From Cyanidioschyzon merolae (Eukaryota): 64,000 nucleotides of DNA. The notes beneath the pieces are model-generated. The model ran no database searches. It was given only the letters and a program-made list of their open reading frames with translations, and had not been told where the DNA came from. The DNA lies in assembly GCA_000091205.1 (NCBI GenBank), contig AP006489.2. One strand, written 5' to 3'. The first letter of the stretch is position 1, and each line of letters opens with the position of its first letter. This document shows, one piece after another, positions 26,150-64,000 of the stretch. Both the position numbers and the translations under genes were made by a program.

Positions 26150-26778
26150 GCAGTGCAGCGATTGTTGGAAAATCCATGCAAGGATACCCTTTTTTTTCTC
26201 TGTTTCCTCGTAGTCGTTCTAAAAAAGGGATTTCTCCCGGAGATTGGAGCAGGATCGCAATAGACTTTATGGTGGCAGGGCGAGCTTGCGAAAGACTGCC
26301 TTACTTGGACATATTGGTTTTTGTACGGTCTGCGGGTGCATGAACTATCCTTCTCATGTCGTCCACATGCTGCACGTTGTGCACTCGAGGCGGAGCTTAT
26401 CAAACTCTATCTAGATGATTGTGCACATGTCCGTGCATTCGACTTCATACGTTGTCTACGAAATATTACGAATGAAGCTAAAGGGTGAGAAGTTTCGATT
26501 CCATTGATCCGGATATGGATGAAGCGACACGAATAGACAACATGAAGAGCACGTCGCAATGCGAAACCACCACGTGTTTATCAGAGATACGACTGATTTC
26601 GTATGGAAGCGCTGAGTCGCATTCCAGGAGAGACGGGTTCGCGTCGCACTCGATGAGACTCCATTCGAGGAACATGGAAAACCTGTATATGGGTACGCAA
26701 ATAGGGGTCAACAGCTGTTCGTAAAGAAGGGACAGGTAACCTTGAAGACAACTTCAGGTCTAATGGCTAATCAGGTGT

Positions 26779-27144
26779 ATGGTCGCCCGCAAATCGCCAA
26801 ACTGGCGGGATCGTTCGACGTCTTGGTGCTTCATCGAACCAGGCCTCGTGGCCTCTCCTTCCCACTTGTTTTGTGTCCTGCTCGTAGACAGCGTCACTGT
26901 GCATGAATCAAAGGCAGTCGAGTCGTCCGCAACAGAGATTATCGTTGAGCTGCTCTTCATGCCTGCCGGTTCTGCCTGGTTCAACGCAGTCGAGGATATC
27001 TGGTGTAGTGTCGAACACCAATTTTACGCGTCCGGATCAATAGCCGAGTCGTTCGCATCCGCACCACTGTCCTTTGATGAATTTTGGTCCACATGCGCGA
27101 GCTTTGATATGCTCTATTCTTGTTTACTCGTGTGCGGAAGTTAG
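26779..27144 (+). mobile_element. degenerate Tc1/mariner-superfamily (DDE_3-type) transposase remnant
   Basis: The ORF fragment contains …IVELLFMPAGSAWFNAVEDIW… (about nt 26941-27019), matching the characteristic …LPPYSPDLNPIExxW motif at the C-terminal end of Tc1/IS630-type transposases. The rest is decayed. Confidence 0.45.
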
Positions 27145-30039: not shown

Positions 30040-30400
30040 TCAAGTAATCGATTCCGTTCGGAGAGACAACGTCTCGTCTATTTGTGGCCATCGAAGAAAC
30101 CGTATTCGACAGCAGCATTTTACGGCTTGCGCGATGTGCGCTCTGGGGCTCGCGTCTCGTCGACTTCCACCGGAAAGCGTCTTGGGCTGGGCTTTGATTT
30201 GTGGGAACGATCGCTGGCGGCGGCAAGTGCATCATCGCTTTGCACAATGCAACCCAAGATGGATAGAAAAATTTCCTCGACTTTTTCGTGAGCCTGGCGT
30301 CCACTTTCAATACTGTGTTCATCATCGAAGACACCACGTTTTGCACATCCCCAATCGAATGGAAAGCCCTGCGTCTGTCTGTACGGCAGACAACAACGTC
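30040..30400. repeat. diverged fragment (C) of the dispersed repeat family
   Basis: It shares …ctatttgtggccatcgaagaaacc… and VSSMAT-encoding segments with copies A and B. Similarity is weak and the boundaries are approximate. Confidence 0.35.
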
Positions 30401-32034
30401 CTTTTCAACAGGGTCATACAGACGAAAAGCCGTTGATCATCGGGTACAGCACCGGGCGCGTATACCTAGGCAGGTACCGAGCAGAGGCATCGGTACCCGT
30501 CAGGCGCATGTTCCGAACGATGAAGCAAGCCTGTAGGCGCCGCAGGATAGCATCCGGAGAGGGCGATATTGTGGCCATATAGGAACATCTGACCATGATC
30601 GAGTATCAGTGCTGCGATAAGCGCACCTCCGCTCCATACAAACACGACGAAAATCGCAGTCGAAGCATAGATCGCGTTTACCGTATGCGCACGGAACCCA
30701 TCAACAACCGTCGGAAGCAGTCAAATCGGGACTTGTGCGCTTCCATCAGCATCCTTCGGTTGCGGATGGCGGAGCTGGAGCGAAAGAAGAGACAGGCTGA
30801 TCTAGGGCCGGAGAAACGGGAGCTCCAGGAGGAGGCATCCTCCGAAAAAACCAACCACATTCTCTTGTTCAGCATAGTTGGCTGCATCCGAAGCTTTAGT
30901 GTGTGTACGGCCGTCGCAGACAGCCTGTCCCATTGCATGCTGTCATGATGGTAAAAAAAGCTGCTATGATGCAGCGCTTGAAGCACCGCGGCGGACGTCG
31001 CATGCAGCCAGCACGCCCCTGTGGAGCCGTCAGGGACGTCGCCACGAGGCACGGCAAGTCTACCGTCAGACAGGCATCGTCCGGTGAAGGTGCGCTATTC
31101 TGTGCCATAGGGCTGGTGAAGGCGCCGAGAGACCCACAACGAGCCTCGCCTTGGAGGTCGGGGGGTGTCTTTTCCAGCGTTTTCCCGGGAGGCGTCTGTC
31201 ACGACGGTGCTCGCACGACCAGCACCGAAGCGCCGTCTAGGTACCGAATGTTTGCCGATGCACACGAGGTCATCTCGAATACCTCTGATGCCGCACGTTG
31301 CTTCTCCGGATGGAGCTACGCGAGGCAGCGTTCACGCCGAGCGAGGTGCGCGCCCAGATTACGACGCGATCGAGCCGGGACTGGAGGATACTCGCGCGGC
31401 TCCGTCAGGTTGACGCTTGGGCTGGAAAGGGGGTTTTCGAGTCTCAAAAACATCATTGAAAGTAAAGCGTATTATGATTGGCCCGCCTAACCGCAAACTA
31501 CTGGAATCCACTGGCAGCAACTCGTGACTGACTACTCAGCCACAGCGTAAGCTTTTCCGCCTAGCTCAGTTTCGGTAGGCCGCAATGTCTCCCGCGCGAC
31601 ACCAACGGGTAGTCTGTCAAGAGTCTACAGCAGTCGTGCCCAGTACAGCGTGCACCAGTGTTGTCTATTCGCCTGGGGCTAAACGAACTCTTTGTTCTGC
31701 TGTTGAAAGCAGCCGCCTACTGACGTGCGTGCGCGCTTTGCACCCCTTGTCTGAGACATTTCAGTGAATTCGCTGCTCGAAATGCACACTTCGGGATATA
31801 CCTCCTCTGAGTCCTCTTTTAAGACGTTTCAGAAGCATCGCTGCTTCAGGTGAAAACCTAGGAGCGTGTCCAGCTGAGCTCCAGTCCAAACAGGCTTCGT
31901 GCAAGCTGAGCCTCCAGCGCATCCAAGTGTGGCGCTGTCCGCAGGCGACGGTGCGACACGACCCTGCATTGGCAGCGACACAGCCGACGTATCTCCTGCC
32001 GCCCCAGACACATACCTAGACACCTCTGGGCCTG

Positions 32035-40022: not shown

Positions 40023-40989
40023 TGGGTACACGCCTCCAGAATCGACGCCTTCGACACGCGCACATCACACCCGTTGCTTTGGGAATCTGTCGCTAGGAGG
40101 CTTTGCAACTGAGGCTGGCATACATCGTGACGCAAGCAGCGTTCCGACCTGCGGGACCGTACGCTCGATCACGATGAACGCTGCCGAAGGGTTACTGCAT
40201 CACCTTCACCCTATGCCGGAGAGGGACGCACTGCCCCATTCCGATTCGCTTCGTCCTCAGCTTGATTGTCGTTAGGCATTCACTGCGATGTGGTAGGGCG
40301 AGCGTCCAGGGAGCTCGCCTCGTTCCATGACCAGCGTCGGCATCGGTTGCTGGTCTGGCTTTTGATTTCCGTTCGGTTTCTTTTGCGGAGCTTGTCAGCT
40401 CGCGCAGCGTCGATCCGTAAACGTCATAGCATGTTCTTTTTCTGGTTGTATTCGTTCGTTGCCGCCAGGCACATGCAAAAAAGTCAGCATCGAAGCGAAT
40501 TGTACGAGCGGATACGTATAGGCAAGCGCTTACGAGCAAGATGGTCTCCATTCGCGTCAAACCGTACATGGAACACTGAACCGTTTGCGCTGTACCTGAC
40601 TTTCCGTGCTTTACCAGCTTGCTGGTAGATGTACAGCCTCTGCATTCGAGATGCAGCAAGAAGGGCGTACGAATTCGTGCGTGAAATCAGGATTCTCGGT
40701 CGTCTTTGATTTCAGTGGCTCCTTCAGCGCTTTCCCGCTGGGAATCGTTATCGCACCGGCATGACGGGGACTCACGACGCCCTCGAAAACGGGTACGTAA
40801 AACAACCGAAACGATGATTTCAATACATATGCACAAGCTCTAGTCTTCTCCTTTGTTTTCGTGGAACGTGTTCAAATCACGGATTTGTTGTGTCGTAGAT
40901 CTCTCTGTTCCATGGCAACGGACGAGCGCAGCTACCCGCACCGCTTGATGGATTGCAAATGAAACTCTCGACTTCGTCCATGGACAGCT

Positions 40990-41760
40990 TCTTCAAAAGC
41001 TCATGCCGCAGCTTCACCGAACCTGTTACGTCAAAGAATCCAAGCCGCTCGAAGGACGACCCATCATGTCTTTGTGGCCATCGACGAAACGACATTCGAC
41101 ACCAGCACCATGATACCTCGCATGATATATGCTTCGAGAGGTTCCCCTCTCTTTCGTTTGCGTGGGATCGGGTGTCGAACTCGGACTTGAGTCATCGCAG
41201 CGATCGTTTCCAGTGGGGAACGCATTACCACTTTGCACGACAGGCGCGTAGACGGATCGACACTTCTCGATTTGTTTTCAAGGTGCTCTTTCATCATGGG
41301 AGACATTGCGTTCCACAAAACCTCTATTACATAAGAGGGTTCGCGCGTACACGCTCAGCAGACAGAGGACTTGCCTGCGGAGATCGCCTCCAAGTCGCCC
41401 GAGATCATAGGATACGGAACCGAGCACGGAAACGGAGCAAAGCATCGAGGTGAATCCTCTGTACCAGACCTGCGCATCGACAGAGCGATGAAGCAAGCCT
41501 TCATGCGTCGTGCGGCCATGCCCCGAGGCCGGCATATGGTGGACTCAGGGTACCGCCTGACCCCGGTTAGCTGTCACCGCTGCGAGGCGTGCACCGATGC
41601 AGTATGCAAAGAAGGGGAAAATTGCGATCGAGGCATCCATCGCAACTGCCGCCTGTTCATGAAATGCGTTGACAACTGCCAGACACGGTGAAATCGGGAT
41701 TGAAACAGTTCCGTCGAATCCCTTCAACAGCCGACAATAGAGTTGGAAAGAAAGGAGGGA
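40990..41760. repeat. diverged copy (B) of the dispersed repeat family
   Basis: It contains …tcgaactcggacttgagtcatcgcagcgatcgtttccagtggggaacgc…, which is homologous to the core of the 1.36-kb copies, and a single copy of the 85-bp unit that is expanded in copy A. Confidence 0.5.
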
Positions 41761-42655
41761 CCGGCGAACTTGAAACCTGGGATAAAAGAGAGAAAATGAA
41801 GCTATCACAAAATTCGTCCGCTCAAAGCTGGTCTAAATGACAACGGGAGCATACGCAGGCTTTAGCGTGTACCTCGGAATCAGAAGACGCATTCTGTTTT
41901 GTACTGGGATCGATGTAGCGTCTGTGACGATTCACATATCTCTGTGCGCACCGCAGTAGCTCCAAGTGGCAACGGTACGCACGTCAGCATGGAAACTCCC
42001 GGACATACGCATTCGGAAGCGGGACCAGGAACGTGCGGCTCAGGTCATGCGGGTGGTATCCGCTGCCAGCGCGGGTATCCCCGGCAGGTACACCCTGTGG
42101 GGCATCAGAAATGAGAAATAGGCGCTGATGCACATGCGCGAGAACGCGCCTTCGGTGTCCATGTCGTGCCCTTTTACAGCTTTCGCTTACCTCGGACTTT
42201 CCCTGGACGAGCGCTACACTGCTTGTCTTGCTTTCAAAACGCCGTCCCAGCCTGCTTTGCGTTTCCAAGGGTCTCGGGTTCGTCACCAAAATCGTCCAGT
42301 GCATGCGAGGCCTGCTTTCCGCGATGGAGCGCATCTTCGAGCGCGATCGAGGGCCAAGCTCTGGCTTCCTGAAATACTATACATCTCGAGTGAACGGTTG
42401 CACGCTCGCATAAGGCTGGAGCGCAGCACGCGAGCAACAACGACGCCTGACTCGTGAGTCGCTGCAAACGCTTGCGTCCACGCTCGCTGACCGCCTCCCC
42501 GACAGTGAACCGTGCGCTTGATCCGCCAGAGATGCCCCCCGAGAAATCCGCTTGTGTAGAGGAAGGCACCGAACCCTCGAGAACAGCAGCGATTCCGGTG
42601 CTGCCGCAGCTCCCCATGCTGCTGACCACAACCCCGTTGTGCGGGGAATCAGCGT

Positions 42656-46126: not shown

Positions 46127-47269
46127 TTACACGTCAATAATTCGGGATAGCTTTTGAAGTCGATTCAGCAAGGCGTCGCCGTGCTTGAGAACCTCTTGAT
46201 ATAGCCCACTACGAGAATCCGGACGACTCGCTACGATGATGCCGGTAATTCGGTCGATTTTCACGCTCAGCCGATCTGCATTGATGAAACGTGCAAGCTC
46301 CGCATCCAGGAATGCTTCTCGCACCCCGAAAGCGGCAGCCATATTGGTGAGCGAAACGCTTTTGTATGCTCGCAAGTACTGGGCGTACGCGGCCAGCCGG
46401 ATCTCGCGTCCAAGGAACGCCTCATAGCGATGAAGCAATCGCTCCTTTCGAACCTGCTCCAGAATGGATGGTAATGTCTGCATGATTCGCAGATAGTCAC
46501 ATGAAACAAAGGCATTCAAACAGTCGCGTACAGCGGGATAATTGTCGATAACCTGCAAAACTTCCGGAGACGACGCGACGCGTTCTTGTAGAACGGGACG
46601 CTCCCTTGTTGCCAGACAACAGACTACAGCGTAGAAGACGAACTGAGGAAAACTGAGCAGTTCTGTTGCCGTGAAAGTAGCGAGTCCGTCGAGAAATGCC
46701 TCGGATGCCTCCAGCCACTCACCTTCGCAGTACATGCGGTGTAGCGCATCGTACACGCGCAAACGGTTCCGGCGCTCCCAGTCGCTGCCCTTGGCCAGCA
46801 GGTCCCGTGCTCGAGCTAGCTCGCGACGCATGAGTCTCCGATCTTCCATAGCTAAACCCAGGCGAAACAGGGCGAAGCAGATGTCGAGTTTCGGCCCAAC
46901 TGCCACCGTCTCTTGAAACGCCGCTTCATAAGAGCGGGTCGCGTTTTCTATGTCGCCGATGCGAGCCCAGAACGCGGAGCGCGCTTCCAGCGCCTCGCGA
47001 ACCTCGGTTTCACCTTCATGCTCGCGCGCGTCTTGGACGCGCACCTGCAGTTGCTTGATCGTCGACGCTATGCGCTCCCGCAGTGCGTCTTCGGAGACAC
47101 GTGCACTTGGAAGCAGCGGCCGTACCCGCTTCTCGTAAAACGGTAGCGCCAGCTGCGTGTCAATCGCTTGCTCGAGTTCCGAAACGTGCTTCCATCCATT
47201 GATGACCGCGAATGCGAGATCGGCGAGATCCAGAATAGGGTCGCGTTGTGTCTCTCCTTCGGTTACCAT
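46127..47269 (-). CDS. RPN7: 26S proteasome regulatory subunit Rpn7 (PSMD6), PCI domain
   Basis: GSDWERRNRLRVY…RFINADRLSVKIDRITGIIVASRPDSRSGLYQEVLKHGDALLNRLQKLSRIIDV matches the Rpn7/PSMD6 C-terminus nearly residue-for-residue. The ORF upstream of the Met at 47269 runs through a (TG)n tract and is not conserved. Confidence 0.85.
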   Translation of the reverse strand: MVTEGETQRDPILDLADLAFAVINGWKHVSELEQAIDTQLALPFYEKRVRPLLPSARVSEDALRERIASTIKQLQVRVQDAREHEGETEVREALEARSAFWARIGDIENATRSYEAAFQETVAVGPKLDICFALFRLGLAMEDRRLMRRELARARDLLAKGSDWERRNRLRVYDALHRMYCEGEWLEASEAFLDGLATFTATELLSFPQFVFYAVVCCLATRERPVLQERVASSPEVLQVIDNYPAVRDCLNAFVSCDYLRIMQTLPSILEQVRKERLLHRYEAFLGREIRLAAYAQYLRAYKSVSLTNMAAAFGVREAFLDAELARFINADRLSVKIDRITGIIVASRPDSRSGLYQEVLKHGDALLNRLQKLSRIIDV

Positions 47270-47287
47270 AAGTGCAGCCCACACAGT

Positions 47288-47304
47288 GCGTGTGTGTGTG
47301 TGTG
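47288..47304. repeat. (TG)n microsatellite just upstream of the Rpn7 start
   Basis: gtgtgtgtgtgtgtgtg run seen directly. Confidence 0.85.
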
Positions 47305-48006
47305 CGAGTGTCTGGAGCAAGAGGTTCAGCCGGAGCCGCACGCCTAGCTCCACACCTGAGAATCCGCTGCGCGTCGACGCGTGCCTGCGCGTTGGGCGGC
47401 GATCAGCGCGCGAAGCGCCTACGACTCGACGATACGGCGCTATGACAGGGCGTGATGCCCCAGAGGAGCGTCTCTTACGCCACGCTCCCACAGTTTCGTG
47501 TACAGCACGATTGCACACGACCCTGATGCACCCCAATGACCAGAATGAAGGCAAGTGCGCACTGCAATGCTCTCTCAGAGCCGCTGATGCAGCTCGTGCG
47601 CCGAGGCATGCGCTACGCCCGAGGCTGACGTGTCCATCTGCACGGAGGTGTTTCGGGCACAGGATCCCTGAATCGAGCGAAGCGTCATCCCCGATGATGC
47701 AATGGCCATCAGCATCCGGGGTAGCGTCTATCACTTCGCACCAGAGCTGCAGGTTCGACCACTGGCCACCGTCGATGCCTGCTTTCTGGGATCGTTGTTC
47801 ATTCATGTGATCCTAGGAGTACCGAGCCAGGCGTGAGCGCGCGCTCCGCAGCACGTGGAGCGACGGTATGACTGGCGGTGCGCCCCGGGGAGGCGGATCG
47901 ACGCTGCGCTGGTGATGCGGGCGGCGGCGGCGGCGACGGCGGCACGATCGATCCAAATCAGATGGAGGTCCTTCTAAGACTGATCTTATTGGTATATACA
48001 TGGTGA

Positions 48007-50073
<2,067 letters not shown>

Positions 50074-50340
50074 ACAAGCTTGAAACGGATGCGCTCCCAT
50101 TTATCGAGAGCGCACGAGACTGGACGGATGTGTGGTACGCCCGCCTGCCTGCGATTGCGGGTATGAAAAGAGAGATGCCTTTCGGGCAAACCATTGGACT
50201 GGCCTCGGATCAGCATCAGCGTCGAGACGGTACTGACTTGTGAGTTTGAAAGAAGGGCTGACGCTGCAGGAACGCGAAGGTAAAGCTGAATCTGCGAGGT
50301 TGCAGCGGGTTCATGCATGTTCATCTACACCAGTGACAGA

Positions 50341-51703
50341 TTCAAATGGGACGCTAAACGGCTCACTCTGTTCCTGTCTGTCGATTTCTTCGGAATTCAT
50401 TCCTGATTCGTACAGCAGTCTCGACGTGAGAAGCGCGACAATAACGGCTGGCGGATTCATGCCGAATCCAGGAATGCTCCATCGACTTGTCAAGCTGGCG
50501 CGGTGGGTGCTCTCTCTCTCTCTCTCTCCGATCGAATACGTTCTATCGTCAGAGCAGAGATCACTCGCAACGCCCTCGAACACACACTCATACAATAACC
50601 GGTATTCGGATGCAATGCATAGGCGCCCAGGCAGCCACGCTTCTCCTGTACGCACACATAGCATACCCAGAGCAGGCGTGCTTCAAGTCTCCCGTCGTTC
50701 CGGTTCGAGGCAACTCGTGTACACGCGAACGACCAACGCTGGCACGACAAGACGAAACGCTTGACGTCACCGCTTGACGACCTGTTCACAAGCTCGTGCC
50801 CGACGGTCGCTGAACTCGTCACGGCACACGACTGAGTCGCTTCGGAACGCAAGTGCTGCTCGCTGGGTGGCCACGGACGTCACGGCACTCGACAGCGGCA
50901 CGCTGTCTGTGAGGGGATATGCGGCCAGAGGCTTCCGTCTCTGGTGTTGCCGTGCAAAAGCGTCTCGGACTCGGACTGGAGTCATCGCGGTGATCGCTTC
51001 GAGTGGAGAACGCGTCACCGTTTTGCGCCAAAAGCGAACGTAGACGCTTCAGGAGTTCTGGACGTGTTCGCCAGCGCGAGTATTGCCTGCAGCACCTGGT
51101 TCATCGTGGAAACCTGCGTCTCCGTTCCAGAAATCCTCTACGGAACGGAGACGCATGTACCTGCTCGTGTGCAACGGACACGGCACTCGACGAAGCGATC
51201 ACCCGGAAGAAGCGCGTGACAGTAGCGTGCCTCACTAGTCGGAGAAGCGGCGGATGCATCGACGGTAACCTTCGTCGCCCGTCCAGGGCGTGGACCTGGC
51301 GCTGAAGCGAGCGTTCACGAGACACAGGGTAGCGCTCTTAGGAGGGCGTGTGATGCTGGCGGTGCAGCGGTGCAGTGGTGCAGCGGTGCAGCGGTGCATA
51401 TCTGGGTACACCCGGTCATAGCTTAGAGTGATCGCTGCGACCAGCGTACCGCGGCCGTATACGAGGAAGACGAGCGTAGCCATCCGAGTGCAGGTCGCAA
51501 GACAGGTGATCACTTTTCCAGTTGCTGACGGCTGCTCTGAAGACGACAGATAGACCTGTGTACTTCGAGCCGGAAACACACAGTTAGAGAATGAAGCAGT
51601 CCAAGGAAAAGACCCCAGAGGCTTCCGTAGATGATGCAACTGTAAACAGGTCGAAACATTTGTGCATCCACACGTGTTGGAGCACCCGTTTCCTTCCAGT
51701 CTG
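50341..51703 (+). repeat. dispersed repeat, young copy 1 (1363 bp), unclassified probable non-autonomous mobile element
   Basis: Near-identical to 55605..56967 and 60160..61523, with shared termini ttcaaa[t/c]gggacgctaaacgg … cccttccagtctg. It contains internal (CT)n and (GGTGCAGC)n runs and no long ORF. Confidence 0.85.
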
Positions 51704-52262
51704 AAACAAGCATAGGAACACGATACAGTCTGTTCCATACCCGGGGTGCTTTCGTCCAGGTTGTGCGTTTACTCGGGAAATGTCGCATCTTGGACTCCGG
51801 GGACTGCACAGTGTTCAGCTGAGGCTCCTGCAAGTAACCTCAAACGATCAGCAACCTCATGCGAAGGCGTTCGAAAGGTCGTATCGACATCGAACGCCGC
51901 CTCCAAAGCGTTCCACAACAAGTACCCTCACGGCTATCGAGAATCCCAGTATCGAAATCGAGCGAAAGATACTTAGCTCTGGAGCTACGTCCGTCTCACA
52001 GGTCCCAGAATCGCCGCATGAAGCAAGCATATTCATCAACATGGGTAACGGTTCCCGGTGGGGTTACGAGCCGGCTCCTTTGCTTGGGGCGGCGAACTTC
52101 AAGCTCGGAAAACGCAGTCGTATGACAAGCACGCACGCAAGCACCATTTTCATTCCAAATGCACCGCTACCGCTCCAGTGCCGCCCTGATAACGAGCGCG
52201 TACACATCAGGCTCAACAACTGTGACGACGACAGCGGCAGTAGAAACGCCAGACGCGAACCT

Positions 52263-54296
52263 CTAAGGCGCTGATGGCAACGCAGGCACCATTCCAGAAC
52301 GCTCAATCAGCGCCAGTGCCTGCACCACTGTGGCATCATCGTAGGCATCACCAATGAACTGGATGCCTACTGGAAGGTAAACCGGCGGCTCGCTTCCCTG
52401 TGCGTCGGCAGAGGGCACAAGACCTACCGGTGCTGTTCCCGCCGGCAAACCAGCAATGTTTGCCACAAAAGTATAGGTGACGGCTTGCCAGGTCGCCCGC
52501 AGATCCTTGCAAGGTTTCCGATCGGGCCGGAACGCAACCGGAAGCGTATCGGTTGTGGGCAAGGCCAGCACATCCACAATGTTGCGACGAAACAGGGTTG
52601 CCAGTTGCACTCGAAGGGCCGCTCTCGCTCGCCGAGCAACGGCCATATCGGCTCCGGTGATGCCTTTCACCGTGTGCAGAACGAGACGACTCCCGTACTC
52701 AAGAAGCTCGCTGCGTGGTTTGAAGCTCCAGTCTGTGGATAAAAGACATTCGAGGGCATCCAGGGGCAAATAAATTGCTCCAAGAGCTGAGGCAAACGGT
52801 TGCAAAGATATGTGCTCCTGGGGTATCGTCACGAGTTCCGCCCAACCGCGATCCGCGAGCCGATGCAAGGCGTCCAGACCAGTGCGTCGAATCGCCGCCG
52901 AGGAGCATCGCTGCCACTCAGACAATGGTATACCAATGCGGAGCTTTCTCGTGGACCCAACCGCTATTTGTCCGGCATCGTTCAGCGATGCGCTCCATTG
53001 CTCCAAGCGGTCCAGTAGCATCGCCACAGCATGTTTCGCTGAACCTCTCGGAGCGTAACCATCTCCGCTCTCGTCAGCATGCACGAGCAAATGATCCATG
53101 CTCTTCGTGTTGGGTGACGTATCCTGCACCGCGGCGACCAGGAAGGCAACAAGATCAAGCACCGAGACTCCGAGGACGCCACCGTGGCCTACGCTTGAGC
53201 AGGCGATACCGGGGTCACCACGACGCGGAAGCAGAAATGCATGGGTCGGCTTCAATCCGAAAAGGCCATTCCAAGCAGCCGGAATCCGCACGCTACCGCC
53301 ACCATCGGTACCATAGGCAACAGGCACATGCAGCAGCGCGACGCGTGCGACAGCAGCCGCGCTACCCGTTGATGAGCCACCAGCGGCATGCCGCTCGCTA
53401 AAAGCACACGGCGGCATCGCATAGACCTCACTGAAACCGAGCGGGTCGAGTCCAAACTCTGTCATCTTCGTTTTTCCGAGCACAACGGCACCAGCTGCTT
53501 CGAGGCGTTCGATCAAGAGTGCATCCGCGTCGGCGACGCGAGGAGCGTCTCGGTATGGAGGGATCGTATGAATGCGCGTTCCACTGGAGGTCACACGTCC
53601 AGCCACATTGACCGAGTCTTTCACAACGACAAGCACTCCATCCAGGACTGAGAGCGGCTGAGGCTGCGGCTCTCTCGCATAGCGCTGTGCAGAGGCGTTC
53701 GCAGCTCGCCGAGCGCGCTCTTCGAATACCTGTGAAAATGGCGATGGACCCCATGCCGTCATCCCTCCCTGTTCCATCTTCCGGATAGCGCTTAGCGTAG
53801 ATTCCAGGATTTGCAGCGGTGTGCAGACTCGCTGTCGATATAGTTGATGATAGGTTAGGCAGGAGCCGGTGCGGATGCCGCGCTCTTCGAATGCAGTCGG
53901 TGGAGCTGCTTCCTGAACGGAAGCGACTCGCGTTTTCCCAACACTTGCGGAGTATGCTTCGCACAGAGCCCAAACTCGCGCATAGGAGAGCGCTTCTCGT
54001 GGCTGTCGAGTCGCTGAACTGCCATCGATGTGCCGACCCGGCAACGGACGCTCGTCTAGCGCACTCGTAGCGAGTGCCGCGGCGTCGACTGCTGTCGCTG
54101 AACCCTCCGCAGCACCCAGCTCAACGATCGAACGCAGCGTCGTGCATAGCCGGTCGAAGCTGAACAGTCGTTTCGTAAAGGTTGCGGCAAGCCACGAACC
54201 CAGGTTGCCTAGAAGTTCCAGGACCAAAACCAGCACACGGAGCGTTGTGCCGTGGAGTGACGTGAACCGCTTAGGCTTTCTTGGTTGCAAGCTCAT
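52263..54296 (-). CDS. amidase-signature family enzyme (FAAH-like) with N-terminal hydrophobic anchor
   Basis: Amidase signature GGSSTGSAAAVARVALLHVPVAYGTDGGGSVRIPAAWNG with the catalytic Ser-cisSer-Lys context. The N-terminal helix is TLRVLVLVLELLGNLGSWLAA. Total 677 aa. Confidence 0.85.
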   Translation of the reverse strand: MSLQPRKPKRFTSLHGTTLRVLVLVLELLGNLGSWLAATFTKRLFSFDRLCTTLRSIVELGAAEGSATAVDAAALATSALDERPLPGRHIDGSSATRQPREALSYARVWALCEAYSASVGKTRVASVQEAAPPTAFEERGIRTGSCLTYHQLYRQRVCTPLQILESTLSAIRKMEQGGMTAWGPSPFSQVFEERARRAANASAQRYAREPQPQPLSVLDGVLVVVKDSVNVAGRVTSSGTRIHTIPPYRDAPRVADADALLIERLEAAGAVVLGKTKMTEFGLDPLGFSEVYAMPPCAFSERHAAGGSSTGSAAAVARVALLHVPVAYGTDGGGSVRIPAAWNGLFGLKPTHAFLLPRRGDPGIACSSVGHGGVLGVSVLDLVAFLVAAVQDTSPNTKSMDHLLVHADESGDGYAPRGSAKHAVAMLLDRLEQWSASLNDAGQIAVGSTRKLRIGIPLSEWQRCSSAAIRRTGLDALHRLADRGWAELVTIPQEHISLQPFASALGAIYLPLDALECLLSTDWSFKPRSELLEYGSRLVLHTVKGITGADMAVARRARAALRVQLATLFRRNIVDVLALPTTDTLPVAFRPDRKPCKDLRATWQAVTYTFVANIAGLPAGTAPVGLVPSADAQGSEPPVYLPVGIQFIGDAYDDATVVQALALIERSGMVPALPSAP

Positions 54297-55604
54297 GAAC
54301 GCACTGAATCACCACAGCTTTCAGTGGATTCACGTTCAACACGCTGGACAGTGCAGGAACGCTCTGCCCCAATGACATCGCTTCGAATCAATGTGGGGAC
54401 GGGTTCGCGGATACTTGCATTCTCGGTCGATGACAGAAGCGGTATGCAACCTGTGGCACTTCTCTACCTATGCTCTGATGGTTCATGTTCGGCATAGATA
54501 GGTATGGTTGGTGAGGTTATCCCAGGGATTCGAGCTTGCCGCAAATCGGCTGGTGATATCTCGTATTCTGCGAGGCCGATTTTTTGCGGCTCTTGCTGTT
54601 GACACCACCACCACCGTCCGAGTAGCTGCTGTTGCGAACATCTCGGTCTGTGGAAGCACCTGGCTGGGGTAAACGTGAAAAGGCCACGGAATCGTCTAAA
54701 AGGATTTTGTAGACGGAACTTGAACACATATCTGAAACGTGTTTGCCAAGCGAACCTGTGCCCTTGACGTGATGCTGAACCAAGTGCGTACATCGCACGG
54801 TACCTGGCCGGTTTTCAGCATCGATCGATTCTTGTACCCCGAAAAAGGGAGTACGCGTCCGTGCACAAGGCATCAACGTTTAGAGAGCATCTGCATAGAC
54901 CGCAGCTTAACCCCTTCAACCGAGTCGTTCGCCTCGTTCGGATTCCAGGTACGACTCCTGCCGTGTTGACTGTCGAAAACATTCCATGATCGCTTGCTTA
55001 TCAGTACCGCATGTGGCATTACCAATGCAGGTACCTGTTCCGTGAGCCTAATCGTCTACAATCGCACGAGGCACAAGTTTGGTGCCTTGTTTTATATCCG
55101 ATTATCCGGAATGTTGAGCGGTATTGCATGCTCTAGCGCTGGCGAGCATGGACAACGACGATAGACAGAATACCTCGCTGGAATCGGTTATGGAGTGTAC
55201 GCTTTCCTCGCGACGCATAGCGCTCAGATGTCGTGGTGAGGCATACGCTGCGGAGTGTGGTCCCATGCAGACTGCCGGTTAGGATCGGCGTAAACGACGC
55301 ATTTTCGATCCAGTCTCGAAGAAAGGAAGACATTCAGATGATCCGTCGTGGAAACGGGTGCATTTCTGTTTCTTATCAGTCTTTCGAAGCTTTTCGATTG
55401 TACCGTTAGAGATCGCAACGATAGAGGCTACCTCTCACCGGATTGTGAACGGATGTGCGGCATCGACACCACAGGCACAGCTGTTATGCTCGTCTATACA
55501 ATCGCTACGTATCCCAGTTCCAGTCGCAGAACTGCTCCGTTCCCAGCAGAGAGCGATCCATGCTCCGCTCTGATGGTGTTCCAGTGCTCTGAAGCACTGT
55601 AAGA

Positions 55605-56967
55605 TTCAAATGGGACGCTAAACGGCTCACTCTGTTCCTGTCTGTCGATTTCTTCGGAGTTCATTCCTGATTCGTACTGCAGTCTCGACGTGAGAAGCGC
55701 GACAATAACGGCTGGCGGATTCATGCCGAATCCAGGAATGCTCCATCGACTTGTCAAGCTGGCGCGGTGGGTGCTCTCTCTCTCTCTCTCTCCGATCGAA
55801 TACGTTCTATCGTCAGAGCAGAGATCACTCGCTACGCCCTCGAACACACACTCATACAATAACCGATATTCGGATGCAATGCATAGGCGCCCAGGCAGCC
55901 ACGCTTCTCCTGTACGCACACGTAGCATACCCAGAGCAGGTGTGCTTCAAGTCTCCCGTCGTTCCGGTTCGAGGCAACTCGTGTACACGCGAACGACCAA
56001 CGCTGGCACGACAAGACGAAACGCTTGACGTCACCGCTTGACGACCTGTTCACAAGCTCGTGCCCGACGGTCGCTGAACTCGTCACCGCACACGACTGAG
56101 TCGCTTCGGAACGCAAGTGCTGCTCGCTGGGTGGCCACGGACGTCACGGCACTCGACAGCGGCACGCTGTCTGTCAGGGGATATGCGGCCAGAGGCTTCC
56201 GTCTCTGGTGTTGCCGTGCAAAAGCGTCTCGGACTCGGACTGGAGTCATCGCGGTGATCGCTTCGAGTGGAGAACGCGTCACCGTTTTGTGCCAAAAGCG
56301 AACGTAGACGCTTCAGGAGTTCTGGACGTGTTCGCCAGCGCGAGTATTGCCTGCAGCACCTGGTTCATCGTGGAAACCTGCGTCTCCGTTCCAGAAATCC
56401 TCTACGGAACGGAGACGCATGTACCTGCTCGTGTGCAACGGACACGGCACTCGACGAAGCGATCACCCGGAAGAAGCGCGTGACAGTAGCGTGCCTCACT
56501 AGTCGGAGAAGCGGCGGGTGCATCGACGGTAACCTTCGTCGCCCGTCCAGGGCGTGGACCTGGCGCTGAAGCGAGCGTTCACGAGACACAGGGCAGCGCT
56601 CTTAGGAGGGCGTGTGATGCTGGCGGTGCAGCGGTGCAGTGGTGCAGCGGTGCAGCGGTGCACAACTGGGTACACCCGGTCATAGCCTAGAGTGATCGCT
56701 GCGACCAGCGTACCGCGGCCGTATACGAGGAAGACGAGCGTAGCCATCCGAGTGCAGGTCGCAAGACAGGTGATCACTTTTCCAGTTGCTGACGGCTGCT
56801 CTGAAGACGACAGATAGACCTGCGTACTTCGAGCTGGAAACACACAGTTAGAGAATGAAGCAGTCCAAGGAAAAGACCCCAGAGGCTTCCGTAGATGATG
56901 CAACTGTAAACAGGTCGAAACATTTGTGCATCCACACGTGTTGGAGCACCCGTTCCCTTCCAGTCTG
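55605..56967 (+). repeat. dispersed repeat, young copy 2 (1363 bp)
   Basis: About 98% identical to copy 1 by inspection (single-base differences such as gcaggcgtgc versus gcaggtgtgc) and in the same orientation. Confidence 0.85.
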
Positions 56968-57430
56968 GAATTCATGAATACCTTATCTGATCTATATGTA
57001 GAGGTCGCGAGACCCGTCCGAACCCCAACATACGCATATGCGTTTTTTCCTGCACGTTGACGTGTCCATGGGCAGCGCCACTGCCGAAGACATACACGCT
57101 CATGAAACGTGGTATCTGGAGCGGCATCGATGTGATTTCGTAACACTCTACGACATTGCTGCTGACATCGACGCGAGCACAGGGGCATACGCGCTCATCC
57201 GCATCCGACCGTGGAGCCATTTCTGTCATGTGTACCAGATTCAAGAAAAGCCAATTCAAAGCAACCACTTGAAACATAGGGAATTCGTCGTCGTCACTCA
57301 CTTTTGCGTACTTGATCCCTTATTTAACCTGGTTCCCATTGACAATTTGTATGCTTTATGAACCAAAACAGGTCGCGTACGAAAACGAATCTGGCGCGAC
57401 CTTGTTCGAATCGTTTTGGCTTGTACTTGA

Positions 57431-59689
57431 TTGCCCGTGGCTCTTAGGAAGCGTTTCGGTCGGCACGGGGCGTTTCCCATGACTGACGAGCACCAGTCGG
57501 GCACAGCGTGTCAGAGCTCAGCGAGGAAACCGCCCAAGGGAGGTCTGCGACGAAGCACACGCAGCAGGATTCGGGAAGCTCCACCCGAAGACTCACCAGC
57601 GTTGCCGACGCCGCGTACGCCGCAATGGCAGGCCAAGGCGCCCGCTGAAACGCTCTGGAGCCCTTGGCGGGATCAAATAGAGACTGGTTTGGGGTTCGAA
57701 ACGCCGAAAAACTCCGGTAAAGGGGATCGTCGTCGAGGTCACCGTCGAGAGCAGCGGACCAGGCCGGCAGCCGACAAGCGACGCGTTCGCTGGGCGGCCT
57801 CAGTGCGTGGGAAACGCCCGCCGCTGCTCTCGATAGCTGTATCGGTGGCTGGCTGGATCACGCTGGTTATCGTTGCGGTACTTCTTCTGGTGCGTGGGCA
57901 AAAGTGGCAGCAACAGCAAGTGCTGTCGCTTCGGGCGACAACTCGGAGGTACGCGTACGCCACCCTGCTCTGTGATGATGAACGCATGCTCCGGGCAGTT
58001 GCGGCATTGGTGCACTCGCTTCGAGTCCGAGCAAACACCTCCTACCCGATCTTGGTGCTTACCACACCCAACTTGTCAACAGCGGCGTCACAGCATCTGG
58101 AGGCGCTTGGAGCAACAGTAATACGGCGCGAGCCGCTGCCGTATCCGTTTGCCCTGAACGCAGCCCGGCTCCGCGATAACAAACCCTGTCGCTATGCCAA
58201 GTTACACCTGTGGTCGTTAACAACATACGAAAAGATTGTGTTCCTTGATGGAGACACATTGGTTTTGGCACCAATTGATGATCTCTTTGAAAAGTATGAT
58301 GCGCTCGCTGCTGCTCCAGACCTCTATCCGGAGACGTTCAACTCCGGCGTGATGGTGCTCGAACCGCGCCACGATGTGTACGCCTCGATGTTGGCACGAT
58401 ATCGGGAGACACCCTCGTACAACTTGGGCGATCAGGGCTTTCTGAATAGTTTCTTTGGTGAGCAATGGAGAGCGAACCCGAAGCGTTTCCACTTGCCCCT
58501 GGAATACAACACGCTGCTGAAGCTGCGGGAGACCATTCTCTGGGCGAGCCTCCAGCGCCGCGTCCGTGTTGTCCATTTTACTGGAGAAACCAAACCGTGG
58601 AGCTGGCACTTGACCAATTTTCGTGACTGGGATCGTCATATCGATCCTGTCTTCTACTACGAATGGATTCAGATCGACCGATCAGCACGCAACTTATCAC
58701 TTGATGAACCGCACTGGGCCCGTTGCGCTCTGGAAGCCCAGACGCTAGCCATGCACAACGGGAGCCTTGGACAACGCTTTCCGCTTCGCGATCGCTACAG
58801 TGTGGTGCTCAGCACGTATAGCCGCGATGATTTGCTACATAAGCTGTTGCGCATTCATTATCGCCCTGGCCTGTTCCCTGGAAAACCCAAGTCGCGTCAG
58901 AAGGAACAAACATCGGACGCGAGTGCGCTGATCGATAAGGTATTCATTGTGTGGCATGATCCGCAGCGAACACCACCGCCGGACCTTCTTCGTAATCTGC
59001 CGCCGGATCGATTCCTGCTTGTTCAACAGCAGCAGGACTCGCTGAATAACCGCTTTAATCCTCTGGGGCCCGCTCTGCGCACACGAGCAGTGCTCATCGT
59101 CGATGACGATATTCGCATTCATCACGAGGATGCAGCATTCGCTTTCCGAGTCTGGCAGGATAATCCGAATGCGCTGGTTGGCTTCTTCCCGCGTTTTCAC
59201 CGGCGGCATCCTCAGACCGGAACGTATGAGTACCACATTGCTGAGCCCGTGGATCACGATGCGAACGCGAGTCACAGACAGTTCCGTCGCTACTCGATTG
59301 TGCTAACCAAGCACATGTTCATGCGCGCTGACTTTCTCTTCTACTATCGCTGCCTTCTGCCGGATGAACGCATTCATGCTTATGTCGACGAGCATCGGAA
59401 CTGCGAGGATATCGCTTGTCAGTGCATGGTGACCAGTATGGGTGGATCCGCTCCCATCGCCGTTCGTGCGGTGCACCCGGTCGAGGACTACGGCACCCCG
59501 GGTGTAGGCGTTGCCGGTGGTATCAGCGCATCACGGTCTCATTTGGGGTCCCGTTCCCACTGCATTGCGACCTTTTTAGAGACGTTTTGGAAAGGTTCAA
59601 ATGCCCTTCTTTATAATGACGTAATCATGGAGCGTTTTGTGAAGATTCCGTTTGAGAAAAAGCGACTGCGGGACCTGGCGAAAACGTGA
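57431..59689 (+). CDS. type-II membrane glycosyltransferase with fused GT8 (glycogenin/GUX/IPUT1-like) and GT64 (EXTL2/GINT1-like) catalytic domains
   Basis: The N-terminal signal anchor LLSIAVSVAGWITLVIVAVLLLV is followed by a GT8 domain (YATLLCDD…KLHLWSLTTYEKIVFLDGDTLVLAPIDDLF…FNSGVMVLEP…GDQGFLN…KPW). A GT64 domain follows (YSVVLSTYSRDDLL…VFIVWHD…VLIVDDDIRIHHEDAAFAFRVWQD…GFFPRFH…YSIVLTKHMF…CEDIACQCMV), collinear with EXTL2. Confidence 0.85.
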   Translation: MPVALRKRFGRHGAFPMTDEHQSGTACQSSARKPPKGGLRRSTRSRIREAPPEDSPALPTPRTPQWQAKAPAETLWSPWRDQIETGLGFETPKNSGKGDRRRGHRREQRTRPAADKRRVRWAASVRGKRPPLLSIAVSVAGWITLVIVAVLLLVRGQKWQQQQVLSLRATTRRYAYATLLCDDERMLRAVAALVHSLRVRANTSYPILVLTTPNLSTAASQHLEALGATVIRREPLPYPFALNAARLRDNKPCRYAKLHLWSLTTYEKIVFLDGDTLVLAPIDDLFEKYDALAAAPDLYPETFNSGVMVLEPRHDVYASMLARYRETPSYNLGDQGFLNSFFGEQWRANPKRFHLPLEYNTLLKLRETILWASLQRRVRVVHFTGETKPWSWHLTNFRDWDRHIDPVFYYEWIQIDRSARNLSLDEPHWARCALEAQTLAMHNGSLGQRFPLRDRYSVVLSTYSRDDLLHKLLRIHYRPGLFPGKPKSRQKEQTSDASALIDKVFIVWHDPQRTPPPDLLRNLPPDRFLLVQQQQDSLNNRFNPLGPALRTRAVLIVDDDIRIHHEDAAFAFRVWQDNPNALVGFFPRFHRRHPQTGTYEYHIAEPVDHDANASHRQFRRYSIVLTKHMFMRADFLFYYRCLLPDERIHAYVDEHRNCEDIACQCMVTSMGGSAPIAVRAVHPVEDYGTPGVGVAGGISASRSHLGSRSHCIATFLETFWKGSNALLYNDVIMERFVKIPFEKKRLRDLAKT

Positions 59690-60159
59690 TCGCTGCAGAG
59701 CTATCGCCAGTGCTGGTGCGGATGCAGAGGACCTGGACGCGCCCTCCAGTAGTCAAGCGTGCGAAGCATCGCGTCGGATCCAGTGAAGAGGTATTTTGTC
59801 GGCACTCGACTTGGCTGCTGGTGCAGGTTCTATGGTGCGCGGATCCTACGAGCAAGAGGGTCTGCACTCCAACCGTGGTGTAAGCGCTCGGCACACCCTC
59901 TATATTGCGTCAGGGGTTTAGGCTTCGCGTAGGTACACGGGCGAAGCGATCGTCGCATGCCTTGCGTCTGCGGGTTATACTGGCGAAGGACACGTGCGGA
60001 ATTCTGCTCGAAGATTCAAGAACTGTCGGCTAGGAGTTTGAACAGGAATCTGATTGTACCGTGCTTTGCGATGTGAATGCGATCGGGGAGTGCACCAAGA
60101 TGGCATTTGAATAAAATGCTCGTACATCGCTCCAGTTCTTGTTGTAGGTATGTATCGGG

Positions 60160-61523
60160 TTCAAACGGGACGCTAAACGGCTCACTCTGTTCCTGTCTGT
60201 CGATTTCTTCGGAGTTCATTCCTGATTCGTACTGCAGTCTCGACGTGAGAAGCGCGACAATAACGGCTGGCGGATTCATGCCGAATCCAGGAATGCTCCA
60301 TCGACTTGTCAAGCTGGCGCGGTGGGTGCGCTCTCTCTCTCTCTCTCCGATCGAATACGTTCTATCGTCAGAGCAGAGATCACTCGCTACGCCCTCGAAC
60401 ACACACTCATACAATAACCGATATTCGGATGCAATGCATAGGCGCCCAGGCAGCCACGCTTCTCCTGTACGCACACGTAGCATACCCAGAGCAGGCGTGC
60501 TTCAAGTCTCCCGTCGTTCCGGTTCGAGGCAACTCGTGTACACGCGAACGACCAACGCTGGCACGACAAGACGAAACGCTTGACGTCACCGCTTGACGAC
60601 CTGTTCACAAGCTCGTGCCCGACGGTCGCTGAACTCGTCACGGCACACGACTGAGTCGCTTCGGAACGCAAGTGCTGCTCGCTGGGTGGCCACGGACGTC
60701 ACGGCACTCGACAGCGGCACGCTGTCTGTCAGGGGATATGCGGCCAGAGGCTTCCGTCCCTGGTGTTGCCGTGCAAAAGCGTCTCGGACTCGGACTGGAG
60801 TCATCGCGGTGATCGCTTCGAGTGGAGAACGCGTCACCGTTTTGTGCCAAAAGCGAACGTAGACGCTTCAGGAGTTCTGGACGTGTTCGCCAGCGCGAGT
60901 ATTGCCTGCAGCACCTGGTTCATCGTGGAAACCTGCGTCTCCGTTCCAGAAATCCTCTACGGAACGGAGACGCATGTGCCTGCTCGTGTGCAACGGACAC
61001 GGCACTCGACGAAGCGATCACCCGGAAGAAGCGCGTGACAGTGGCGTGCCTCACTAGTCGGAGAAGCGGCGGGTGCATCGACGGTAACCTTCGTCGCCCG
61101 TCCAGGGCGTGGACCTGGCGCTGAAGCGAGCGTTCACGAGACACAGGGTAGCGCTCTTGGGAGGGCGTGTGATGCTGGCGGTGCAGCGGTGCAGTGGTGC
61201 AGCGGTGCAGCGGTGCATATCTGGGTACACCCGGTCATAGCCTAGAGTGATCGCTGCGACCAGCGTACCGCGACCGTATACGAGGAAGACGAGCGTAGCC
61301 ATCCGAGTGCAGGTCGCAAGACAGGTGATCACTTTTTCCAGTTGCTGACGGCTGCTCTGAAGACGACAGATAGACCTGCGTACTTCGAGCCGGAAACACA
61401 CAGTTAGAGAATGAAGCAGTCCAAGGAAAAGACCCCAGAGGCTTCCGTAGATGATGCAACTGTAAACAGGTCGAAACATTTGTGGATCCACACGTGTTGG
61501 CGCACCCGTTCCCTTCCAGTCTG
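60160..61523 (+). repeat. dispersed repeat, young copy 3 (1364 bp)
   Basis: Near-identical to copies 1 and 2 and in the same orientation. Confidence 0.85.
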
Positions 61524-63352
61524 TCATAGGCGTGCAGTAACTTGTTCAGTGATGCATTCCGTTGATGAGGGTGCTCGCGGGCCGTCGCGACGTCAACGCC
61601 CACTTCAAGCAAGCTGCTGGATTCTTGACTTGCTTTCCGCGTTCCTTGCCAGATTTGTCTTGCATGAGCATGTAAGCTGGATCGTACAGAAACGTTGTAC
61701 AAAGCCTAGCGTGGATCAAAGTGCACTGCCCAGTGCCAATGCACGGCAAGTGCTCGCTTCGCATCAAGCGTACGCTGCGTAGCTCCTATGCTGAGAACAT
61801 GCTGGGAAACCGAGCGCTTTACCTTTCACAGGCACGTGCCAAGCACGGGCTACGGCACTGCGTCTTCAGCTGCACAGGCGTTCGTGACAGTGTCGTATCG
61901 CATGAAAATGCAAGCGCTCTTTCTCGCAGTACAAGAGACAACCAGCACGGGTACCATATCGATCGTGATGACGCGTTTATGCTGCCACTTGGCGCCTGTC
62001 ACGCAGCTGGTCAGGTTGCAAGATAGCCAATGACTACACCCGCTTGCGCTCGGTGTTGTGTTGTTTGATAGCTGCCCTGTTCGCAAGTTTGAGTAAACGT
62101 TGTAGCTGCTCTGATCCAAGCAGTCGCACGGCTTCCTGGAGGCCCCGTTCTGATCGTAAACTTTCGAAGCGTTCTTGTAGAACCCGCAGCGGTACGTTCT
62201 TTTCTTCAGAGAGCAGTGTCCATAGCCATTCAGGGTAGGCGGATAACGGCTGCTTTGGCGGTCCTGTTTCGCCCTTGACAATATTAAGCGCGCTCCAGGT
62301 AGTCTCCGTGGCTTCTGACGCCAGCTGGTCTGTGCTTGTTGCGTCGGGAGCTGGACTCGGCTTTTCCGCTCGGTCTGGAGCCTGCTTTCGCGTTTTGGTT
62401 GCAACCCCGCGCCGCACAAGGAACTGGAACCGCTGCCTCAAGGCCCGTACGACGTCTAGCCCTTGCATTCCGTATCCGACGACACCTTCTGACGCAAATA
62501 GAAAAGAAGTTTGGCACCAATGAACGGCAACTACTGCTTTAACAGCGCGCAGCGTCAAGAGCGGTACAATCGACTGAAGAGCATGCGCTTAGGCCATTCG
62601 AACGCTCGTTCACGCGCTCTGCATGAAGCGAACACCGCATGCCGCTCCGGTCGACAAGGCGCTCACAGTGTCGAAACGAGTCCTGACACACACATTGCAC
62701 CTGTTGCTTTATGTCGTGGCTCACGTCATGCCTGGCAGTAGAGACCAGCGAGCACTGGAAAAGTCAGACCGCATCGCATCTGCTCTTCCGCGTATAAGCT
62801 GTCTTGTGGAACGAAATTGTGGACGAAAAATGCCAGAGGTATGTGGACTGCTGGCAGCCCTGCTTGACAACCACCTAGGAACAGTTGCTTGACGACATGC
62901 GTCGAGGTGAGCGTTGCTAGGCAAGACCTGCTCGAGTGCGAAGCATCGCGATCCCTCACGACATCCTATATATTATGATTACTTGGTAGCGAACAATGCT
63001 TCTACTGAACCGTGAGCGTCTACATCGCATTTGACAAGATGAAAGACGTATTTAACTGGACAAAATCAGGGAGAATCGGCTTGCCCGATGAGCGCCTGAG
63101 CACCAATCGCAGCGGTGCACGATTTGATCGCTTTCGAGTCGTGGAAAGCGGTTTGGTCCGAGGGCCGAATCGCGGCCCCTTGAATGAGATGCCATGACGC
63201 GCTTCAACCCTGATTGCGTTCATGAACGATGCTATCGCTTTGGCGGTTTGGATGCAACCACGCAACTGAATCACCGCTAGGTCTGATGTCGTCGGAACGT
63301 TCGCTTGACTCCTCTTTTCGAATAGCGAGTTGCACTTTGTTGCTTGTTCATA

Positions 63353-63882
63353 GACAGGTCTAGCATTTTGTTGGAGTGATCGCTTACGGAATGAGCCGAG
63401 TACTTGTCCCCACTGAAATATTATGATTTAGAAACTCGTAGACAGGTCTAGCATTTTGTTGGAGTGATCGCTTACGGAATGAGCCGAGTACTTGTCCCAA
63501 CTGAAATATTATGATTTAGAAACTCGTAGACAGGTCTAGCATTTTGTTGGAGTGATCGCTTACGGAATGAGCCGAGTACTTGTCCCCACTGAAATATTAT
63601 GATTTAGAAACTCGTAGACAGGTCTAGCATTTTGTTGGAGTGATCGCTTACGGAATGAGCCGAGTACTTGTCCCAACTGAAATAATATGATTTAGAAACT
63701 CGTAGACAGGTCTAGCATTTTGTTGGAGTGATCGCTTACGGAATGAGCCGAGTACTTGTCCCAACTGAAATAATATGATTTAGAAACTCGTAGACAGGTC
63801 TAGCATTTTGTTGGAGTGATCGCTTACGGAATGAGCCGAGTACTTGTCCCAATTGGAATATTATGATTTATAAACGGACAAA
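63353..63882. repeat. 88-bp tandem repeat array, 6 copies (AT-richer satellite-like)
   Basis: The unit gacaggtctagcattttgttggagtgatcgcttacggaatgagccgagtacttgtccc[c/a]actgaaata[t/a]tatgatttagaaactcgta recurs at 63353, 63441, 63529, 63617, 63705 and 63793. The last copy is degenerate. Confidence 0.9.
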
Positions 63883-64000
63883 TTGGATCACCTGTTGATC
63901 GACACGCAGCGGGCTCCCGGTGAAGCACTCGCTTACGCTTACCCATCCGTATCTCTTCGTTGCCGGTCGTATGAACGGTACGGATTCTTCACAGGCTGTT

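Follow-up and report, generated by a model that had tools for sequence, protein, structure and literature searches.

What keeps three kilobase-sized direct repeats, set around two single-copy genes on chromosome 7 of Cyanidioschyzon merolae 10D, almost identical to one another? The repeats, here called R1, R2 and R3, lie in a 64,000-nucleotide (nt) stretch of contig AP006489.2 (GenBank assembly GCA_000091205.1), which we refer to as the window, and they alternate with a gene for an amidase and a gene for a GT8-GT64 fusion glycosyltransferase (GT). A first-pass annotation, made from the letters of the sequence, had ascribed their identity to recent transposition or ongoing gene conversion. Our analysis suggests that R1–R3 are probably resident neighbouring copies of an old repeat family, homogenised by ectopic gene conversion without crossing over. 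Repeat detection and base-level MAFFT alignment delimited the following blocks:

50341–51703, + strand: R1, near-identity block of 1363 nt, between the 3′ ends of the ThiC and amidase genes
55605–56967, + strand: R2, near-identity block of 1363 nt, between the 5′ ends of the divergently arranged amidase and GT8-GT64 genes
60160–61523, + strand: R3, near-identity block of 1364 nt, between the 3′ ends of the GT8-GT64 and mitochondrial ribosomal protein L37 genes

All three are direct copies, with start-to-start distances of 5264 and 4555 nt where 5.26 and 4.56 kb had been noted, and with pairwise identities of 98.75% (R1/R2), 98.46% (R1/R3) and 98.83% (R2/R3). The first-pass annotation had described three 1.36-kb direct repeats of ~98% identity at these positions, and the base-level alignment (98.5–98.8%) bears this out, the identity being as high as had been estimated by eye. 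Pfam matches gave the gene order RPN7 (−), ThiC (+), R1, amidase (−), R2, GT8 plus GT64 (+), R3, then L37 (−), which agrees with the layout proposed earlier from ThiC to R3. Among the three blocks there are 26 substitutions and one 1-nt indel, every one of them private to a single copy, and similarity drops to background within 1–3 nt of either end. Each block begins with TTCAAATGGG and finishes with CCAGTCTG, and the flanks read GACAGA/AAACAA, GTAAGA/GAATTC and TCGGG/TCATAG.

The interior of the unit contains two short tandem arrays and one stable hairpin:

55774–55792 in R2 (also 50510–50528 in R1 and 60331–60347 in R3), + strand: (CT)9.5 microsatellite, found by TRF
56623–56662 in R2 (also 51359–51398 in R1 and 61178–61217 in R3), + strand: (GCGGTGCA)5 minisatellite, found by TRF
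56376–56422 in R2 (also 51112–51158 and 60931–60977), + strand: internal hairpin with a 14-bp stem, from DNA folding

TRF thus recovers in every copy both of the arrays that had been reported, (CT)n and (GCGGTGCA)n, the former with 8.5–9.5 units. Comparison with the other family copies described below indicates that the (CT)n and (GCGGTGCA)5 arrays are insertions specific to the R lineage, and the hairpin (−21 kcal/mol, z = −5.3) is likewise confined to it, no other family copy having it. Both arrays vary in length from strain to strain: environmental strains show 8-nt deletions in the (GCGGTGCA)n array and variable (CT)n length (R1 copies of contigs L007 and L010).

The ends of the blocks, in contrast, show no transposon hallmark, as the first-pass annotation had held. 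A repeat search of the window found no terminal inverted repeats (TIRs) at them, and alignment revealed neither TG...CA termini on the blocks nor a target-site duplication in the flanks of R1–R3. The final 130 nt at the R ends fold no better than shuffled sequences on either strand (z from −0.4 to +2.9), and no copy has a poly-A or simple-repeat tail on either strand. The reported lack of a long open reading frame (ORF) also stands, since ORFs within R reach at most 229 amino acids (aa) and have no Pfam match. Rfam gave no match for the whole window at the gathering threshold, nor for R2 at E <= 1, and a tRNA scan gave no match.

Near-identical repeats invite the suspicion that R1–R3 were collapsed or mis-joined in the reference, particularly as misassemblies, and gaps with 99.4–100% identity to other regions, have been reported earlier for C. 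merolae (Nozaki et al. 2007, PMC1955436). This is refuted by assemblies from JGI, ENA and Logan, derived from many samples and ~99.0–99.7% identical to the window, which contain the same locus and independently reproduce each junction. Several contigs span whole copies (L007, L008, L020 and L021 read through an R copy); others (L001, L013 and L025–L030) end 20–150 nt inside one, as expected of multi-copy sequence, which breaks assembly. We accordingly attach practically no credence to an artefact: the three-repeat structure is present in every sampled population. Empty-site alleles were not seen, all contigs with RPN7/ThiC or the amidase ending at, or reading through, the repeats. The amidase and glycosyltransferase genes are both present in all sampled strains.

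The unit is not restricted to these three places. Searches of the window recovered three further, diverged copies:

11673–13137, + strand: family copy A, 56% identical to R (nhmmer, blastn)
29570–30797 (hidden Markov model (HMM) alignment to ~30959), + strand: family copy B, 53% identical to R
40567–41872, + strand: family copy C, 53% identical to R, between the genes for RIO1 kinase and purple acid phosphatase

All three are collinear with R over the whole unit (E = 1e-31 to 1e-70, nhmmer with the R alignment), and a model built without the R copies matches R1–R3 at E ~1e-130. When an ORF of copy A was searched with phmmer against 1.84 billion representative proteins, it matched only short anonymous ORFs, in at least 103 clusters, CYME_CMT320C on chromosome 20 among them, and eight further copies were identified in unrelated loci (L035–L040; five loci fetched from the ORF clusters). 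The family is dispersed over several chromosomes in both orientations, has a unit length of 1345–1365 nt with most copies full length, and occurs in intergenic DNA only, at a density of about one copy per 7–10 kb; the six copies of the window cover ~12.7% of it. All 51 of 51 pairs of non-R copies are 52–61% identical (~57% mutual), which is why the family looks like the product of an ancient burst followed by neutral decay. Its indels are mostly of 1–2 nt, without an excess of multiples of three, and its alignment shows no codon (three-base) periodicity and no conserved blocks. The lack of periodicity and of an excess of multiples of three led us to abandon the idea of a protein gene in decay, although a hydrophobic stretch is weakly conserved on the minus strand, and a six-frame translation of R2 and copy A (4880 aa concatenated) found no protein homologue.

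Against this background, R1–R3 are the sole near-identical set seen in the family, no other pair exceeding 61%. Sequence comparison thus places them as one lineage of an old and abundant family, and not as the isolated young mobile element that the first-pass annotation had implied. Additional R-type copies were sought in three ways. Seven contigs carry an exact 35-aa ORF of R, all of them in one of the three contexts already known; a right-end junction scan of JGI metagenome contigs, of limited sensitivity, returned nothing once the three known flanks were excluded; and the same scan without restriction, equally limited in sensitivity, returned known junctions only. The first-pass annotation had itself raised the case of just three copies within a larger segmental duplication, which seems true of the number of R-type copies and is false of the duplication, the intervening genes being unique and syntenic in sister species.

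Two side observations concern the family copies of the window. In copy A, an 85-bp family segment is tripled in tandem at 12711–12963, with units 98–100% identical; B and C carry this segment once, and R has lost part of it. Furthermore, all six copies lie on the + strand, which has a chance of about one in eight if the R triplet is counted once. A strand-biased mechanism was considered and dropped, since copies elsewhere occur in both orientations, and we take the pattern as chance plus the local triplet.

Two related species, one of them represented by GCA_041825655.1, have kept the syntenic order GT8-GT64, amidase, ThiC, RPN7, phosphatase and RIO1, with amidases 66–67% identical to that of C. 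merolae. The family sequence is absent from these syntenic loci, and the intergenic spacers in both species are shorter by about one repeat unit, on which grounds the family appears to be lineage-specific to C. merolae. Intergenic DNA of the sister species does not align to the window, so that insertion points cannot be defined.

If the R blocks had been inserted into naive sites, the family resemblance should stop at their edges. Alignments of the non-R copies show that family homology, at the divergence of old copies, continues past the R block for ~18–20 nt on its left side and ~10 nt on its right side, with a left consensus of CTACAYC..GTG..RGA and a right consensus of nCATGGRTG. Position weight matrices (PWMs) built from non-R copies only were scored against every sub-window of the 64-kb sequence and gave the following matches beside the blocks:

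50323–50340, + strand: left extension of R1, family-type terminal sequence (CTACACCAGTGACAGA); PWM p ~1e-4; the non-R HMM alignment starts at 50309
55587–55604, + strand: left extension of R2, weakly family-like; PWM p = 0.03–0.04; 11 of 18 positions identical to the R1 extension
56972–56980, + strand: right extension of R2, family terminal motif (TCATGAATA), 4 nt past the block; PWM p = 0.005, best of 8 offsets
61524–61532, + strand: right extension of R3, TCATAGGCG, in register with the terminal motif; weak, with p = 0.02 at the fixed position and 0.18 as best of 8 offsets

For the left flank (16–18 nt), the scores were p = 1e-4 for R1, 0.03–0.04 for R2 and 0.25 for R3 (Fisher combined 1e-4); for the right motif, taken as the best of 8 offsets, they were 0.11, 0.005 and 0.18 (Fisher combined 0.006). 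The 18-nt left extensions of R1–R3 are mutually identical at 5–11 of 18 positions, against 98.7% inside the block. The earlier statement that only the 1.36-kb unit is repeated is therefore correct at high identity, while weak family-level homology runs slightly beyond the block. Diverged extensions beside a near-identical block point to conversion tracts within pre-existing copies rather than to insertion into naive sites, and the R block would accordingly be embedded in older homology, for which support is good at R1 and R2 and absent at R3.

Evidence that the loci communicate comes from environmental assemblies. At alignment columns 55/65/68/69/74 these show one of two haplotypes, ACATA or GGTCT, and each of the two occurs at R1, R2 and R3:

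R1: ACATA in L008, L021, L022, L025 and L026; GGTCT in L007 and L027
R2: ACATA in L009–L013; GGTCT in L018
R3: ACATA in L020; GGTCT in L019

The haplotype columns lie at most 74 nt from unique flank and are thus anchored by the assemblers' largest k-mers; variants deeper in the repeat (more than ~130 nt from the flank) are possibly assembly chimeras and were not relied on. Towards the right end, the variants of columns 1321 and 1326 recur across loci in the same manner. Since five linked differences cannot arise three times independently, the R loci have exchanged sequence since the haplotypes diverged.

Haplotype sharing also bears on whether R1–R3 could be functional intergenic elements, such as long non-coding RNA genes or regulatory modules, kept identical by selection. 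The confinement of the family to intergenic DNA, at about one copy per 7–10 kb, the uniform copy lengths and the transcription that Nozaki et al. (2007, PMC1955436) report for interspersed repeats of C. merolae would all suit such a role; yet selection cannot explain the same multi-nucleotide haplotypes at three loci. The other members, at 52–61% identity and without conserved blocks, accumulate indels freely, an Rfam search relaxed to E = 1 gives nothing, and sister species with the same genes lack the family. We consider a functional element very improbable.

The observations fit a history in which an old family expansion would have left three adjacent resident copies in direct orientation, whose interiors were then kept or made near-identical by ectopic gene conversion, from locus to locus and without crossing over. 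At the extreme margins, ~18 nt on the left side and ~10 nt on the right side would have remained outside the conversion tracts and drifted like those of any old copy. The exchange would be gene conversion of the homologous-recombination type, and it would have been continuous since the copies were young, because conversion between 57%-identical DNA is hard to start; selection against crossover products would retain both bracketed genes. Of the two origins proposed in the first-pass annotation, it is thus ongoing conversion that the cross-locus haplotypes and the embedded block favour, and not new transposition. Ectopic conversion elsewhere, as in yeast Ty/delta elements, human segmental duplications and palindrome arms, similarly produces excess identity, sharp boundaries and cross-locus polymorphisms. 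The R units differ from those cases in being a decayed non-coding repeat that brackets single-copy genes in a haploid alga, with the mechanism inferred.

Several points weigh against homogenisation of resident copies. Family resemblance beyond the blocks is strong only to the left of R1 and to the right of R2, and the flanks of R3 are not significantly family-like on either side (the right one taken as best of 8 offsets), which would allow a later origin for R3 and, conceivably, for R2. On both sides the last nucleotide is the same in all three blocks, and a unit defined by the element would account for this no worse than independent tracts would. As conversion at 57% identity is not easily started, concerted evolution would have to have been uninterrupted since the burst, and copies that lie near each other elsewhere, at 4 kb in L037 and at 2 kb in L036, have not been kept alike. 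In addition, the haplotype evidence pools different samples, no single sample having given all three loci.

Two of these points lend some weight to recent local duplicative copying, the main rival, in which a 1363-nt unit would have been copied from a master into one or two intergenic sites close by, whether through transposition or through templated repair of a double-strand break, with the cross-locus variants arising from later conversion. R1 would be the likeliest master, as it is the only copy with a clearly family-type left end. Shared block ends and the unremarkable flanks of R3 are what such copying would produce, as are the star-like private substitutions among R1–R3 and the derived features common to the R lineage, namely the (CT)n and (GCGGTGCA)n insertions and the hairpin. 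The flanks of R2, however, are family-like on both sides (p = 0.03–0.04 and 0.005), and target-site duplications, terminal inverted repeats, terminal hairpins and poly-A or simple-repeat tails are all missing. No other young copy was found in the sampled data, and without any other family pair above 61% identity there is no sign of recent activity. We regard local copying as a possible but rather unlikely origin of the triplet.

Could the unit nonetheless belong to a described class of mobile element? The geometry most suggestive of one is that of long terminal repeat (LTR) retrotransposons, with the R units as LTRs: R1-amidase-R2 (50341–56967) and R2-GT-R3 (55605–61523) each present two 1.36-kb direct repeats of >98% identity 4–5 kb apart, the arrangement that LTR finders seek. 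A RepeatModeler survey, moreover, assigned 1930 copies totalling 2.09 Mb, or 12.66% of the C. merolae genome, to 'LTR elements', against 0.59% in Cyanidiococcus (PMC9812998, Suppl. Dataset 4). The likeness to LTR retrotransposons or solo LTRs ends with these kilobase direct repeats, because R1–R3 lack TG...CA ends and a 4–6-bp target-site duplication. The locus has neither a primer-binding site nor a polypurine tract, and gag-pol is missing as well; where a retrotransposon would have its internal region there are host genes, which keep their synteny in sister species without the repeats. A manual survey also found no LTR retrotransposons in the C. merolae genome (Nozaki et al. 2007, PMC1955436). 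The LTR interpretation is refuted on these grounds and we retain next to no belief in it; the paired direct copies may instead explain how pipelines arrive at 12.66% of 'LTR' sequence despite there being no curated LTR retrotransposons.

Other classes fare no better. TIR DNA transposons and miniature inverted-repeat transposable elements are not matched, with no inverted repeat at the R ends and no flank duplication, and neither are Helitrons, with flanking bases of R not consistently A/T and ends without a hairpin. IS200/IS605-type ends were not found, there being no terminal hairpin when both ends were folded on both strands. A SINE-like element is not indicated, as no tail is present on either strand and most family copies are full length rather than 5′-truncated.

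In the literature, two descriptions come close to the family, and our search found no description of this locus. Intergenic length in C. merolae is doubled relative to Cyanidiococcus, which has been ascribed to repeat expansion (Cho et al. 2023, PMC9812998). Compared by description, that expansion and the R family are alike in copy size (~1.1–1.4 kb), density and lineage specificity, but the 'LTR' label is contradicted by the anatomy of R, which lacks TG...CA ends, a target-site duplication and retroviral genes in its interior. The other description is of an unclassified 'novel interspersed repetitive element' or 'WSV repeat' of C. merolae (Nozaki et al. 2007, PMC1955436; Mikulski et al. 2017, PMC5405695), with 253 copies averaging 3.2 kb, ~5% of the genome, and BLASTX similarity to WSV486 of WSSV. 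Again by description, the 'WSV repeat' and the R family are both C. merolae-specific, on all chromosomes, unclassifiable and equipped with truncated ORFs only; the R family, in contrast, has a unit of 1345–1365 nt and not 3.2 kb and, judging from its density, probably far more than 253 copies.

That a family of ~1.35 kb, making up roughly an eighth of the genome, should lack any canonical transposon hallmark led us to consider a further reading, which we hold to be improbable. The family could be a mobile or propagating element of an undescribed type, one that uses homology-dependent copying to spread or to overwrite resident copies, perhaps by way of a transcribed or extrachromosomal intermediate. 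Were this so, R1–R3 would mark the one place where it can still be seen at work, and the amidase and GT8-GT64 genes would amount to natural 'floxed' cassettes in a haploid alga proficient in recombination.

The genes at the locus were assigned with Pfam, run on 20 ORFs that included all long ORFs within the family copies; matches were to host genes only. From RPN7 to the first gene past R3, they are:

46127–47806, − strand: RPN7 (Pfam; protein identical to BAM79671.1)
48052–50073, + strand: ThiC (Pfam)
52263–54296, − strand: amidase resembling fatty acid amide hydrolase (FAAH), unique gene flanked by R1 and R2 (Pfam; protein identical to BAM79673.1)
57431–59689, + strand: GT8-GT64 fusion glycosyltransferase, unique gene flanked by R2 and R3 (Pfam)
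62034–62558, − strand: mitochondrial ribosomal protein L37, first gene past R3

The best solved relative of the amidase is plant FAAH (6dhv). In a large protein search, its closest relatives outside Cyanidiales were bacterial, mostly Myxococcota/Polyangiaceae, at 33–38% identity, with weaker eukaryotic matches at 26–28%, which hints that the gene may have been acquired horizontally before the split from the sister species. RPN7 is 559 aa long in the 10D reference annotation and 380 aa in most other gene calls of the locus; as its Pfam domains begin only at residue 241 and shorter calls exist, the extra N-terminal length may be an artefact of annotation. A second, unrelated and diverged repeat family (58–65% identity) occurs at 26621–27663 (+), near copy B, and as an inverted copy at 62764–63419 (−), to the right of the L37 gene and near R3. 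The left edge of a tandem array of six 88-bp units (63351–63875, 98% identity, with diverged units from 63260 to 63963) overlaps this family, and the array occupies the stretch of the window where GC content is lowest (46%).

As a model alga, C. merolae is valued for having the 'simplest' genome and for recombining homologous DNA efficiently. Around two single-copy genes, direct repeats a kilobase long and 98.7% identical provide ready substrates for deletion, circle formation or amplification, and it is reasonable to predict, in line with the first-pass annotation, that a crossover between R copies would delete 5.26, 4.56 or 9.82 kb and with it the amidase gene, the glycosyltransferase gene or both. 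As all sampled strains keep both genes, we infer that such products are rare or selected against; repeat-mediated loss or amplification is relevant to strain stability and to engineering at this locus. For assembly and annotation, short-read assemblies break at the R copies and paired copies mimic LTR retrotransposons. Under concerted evolution, repeat identity in the C. merolae genome would not be readable as age. The general understanding of repeats is unchanged by these findings, which are of a known kind, a lineage-specific repeat expansion under concerted evolution, and it is the family itself, as an unclassified element, that offers the only route to something more novel.

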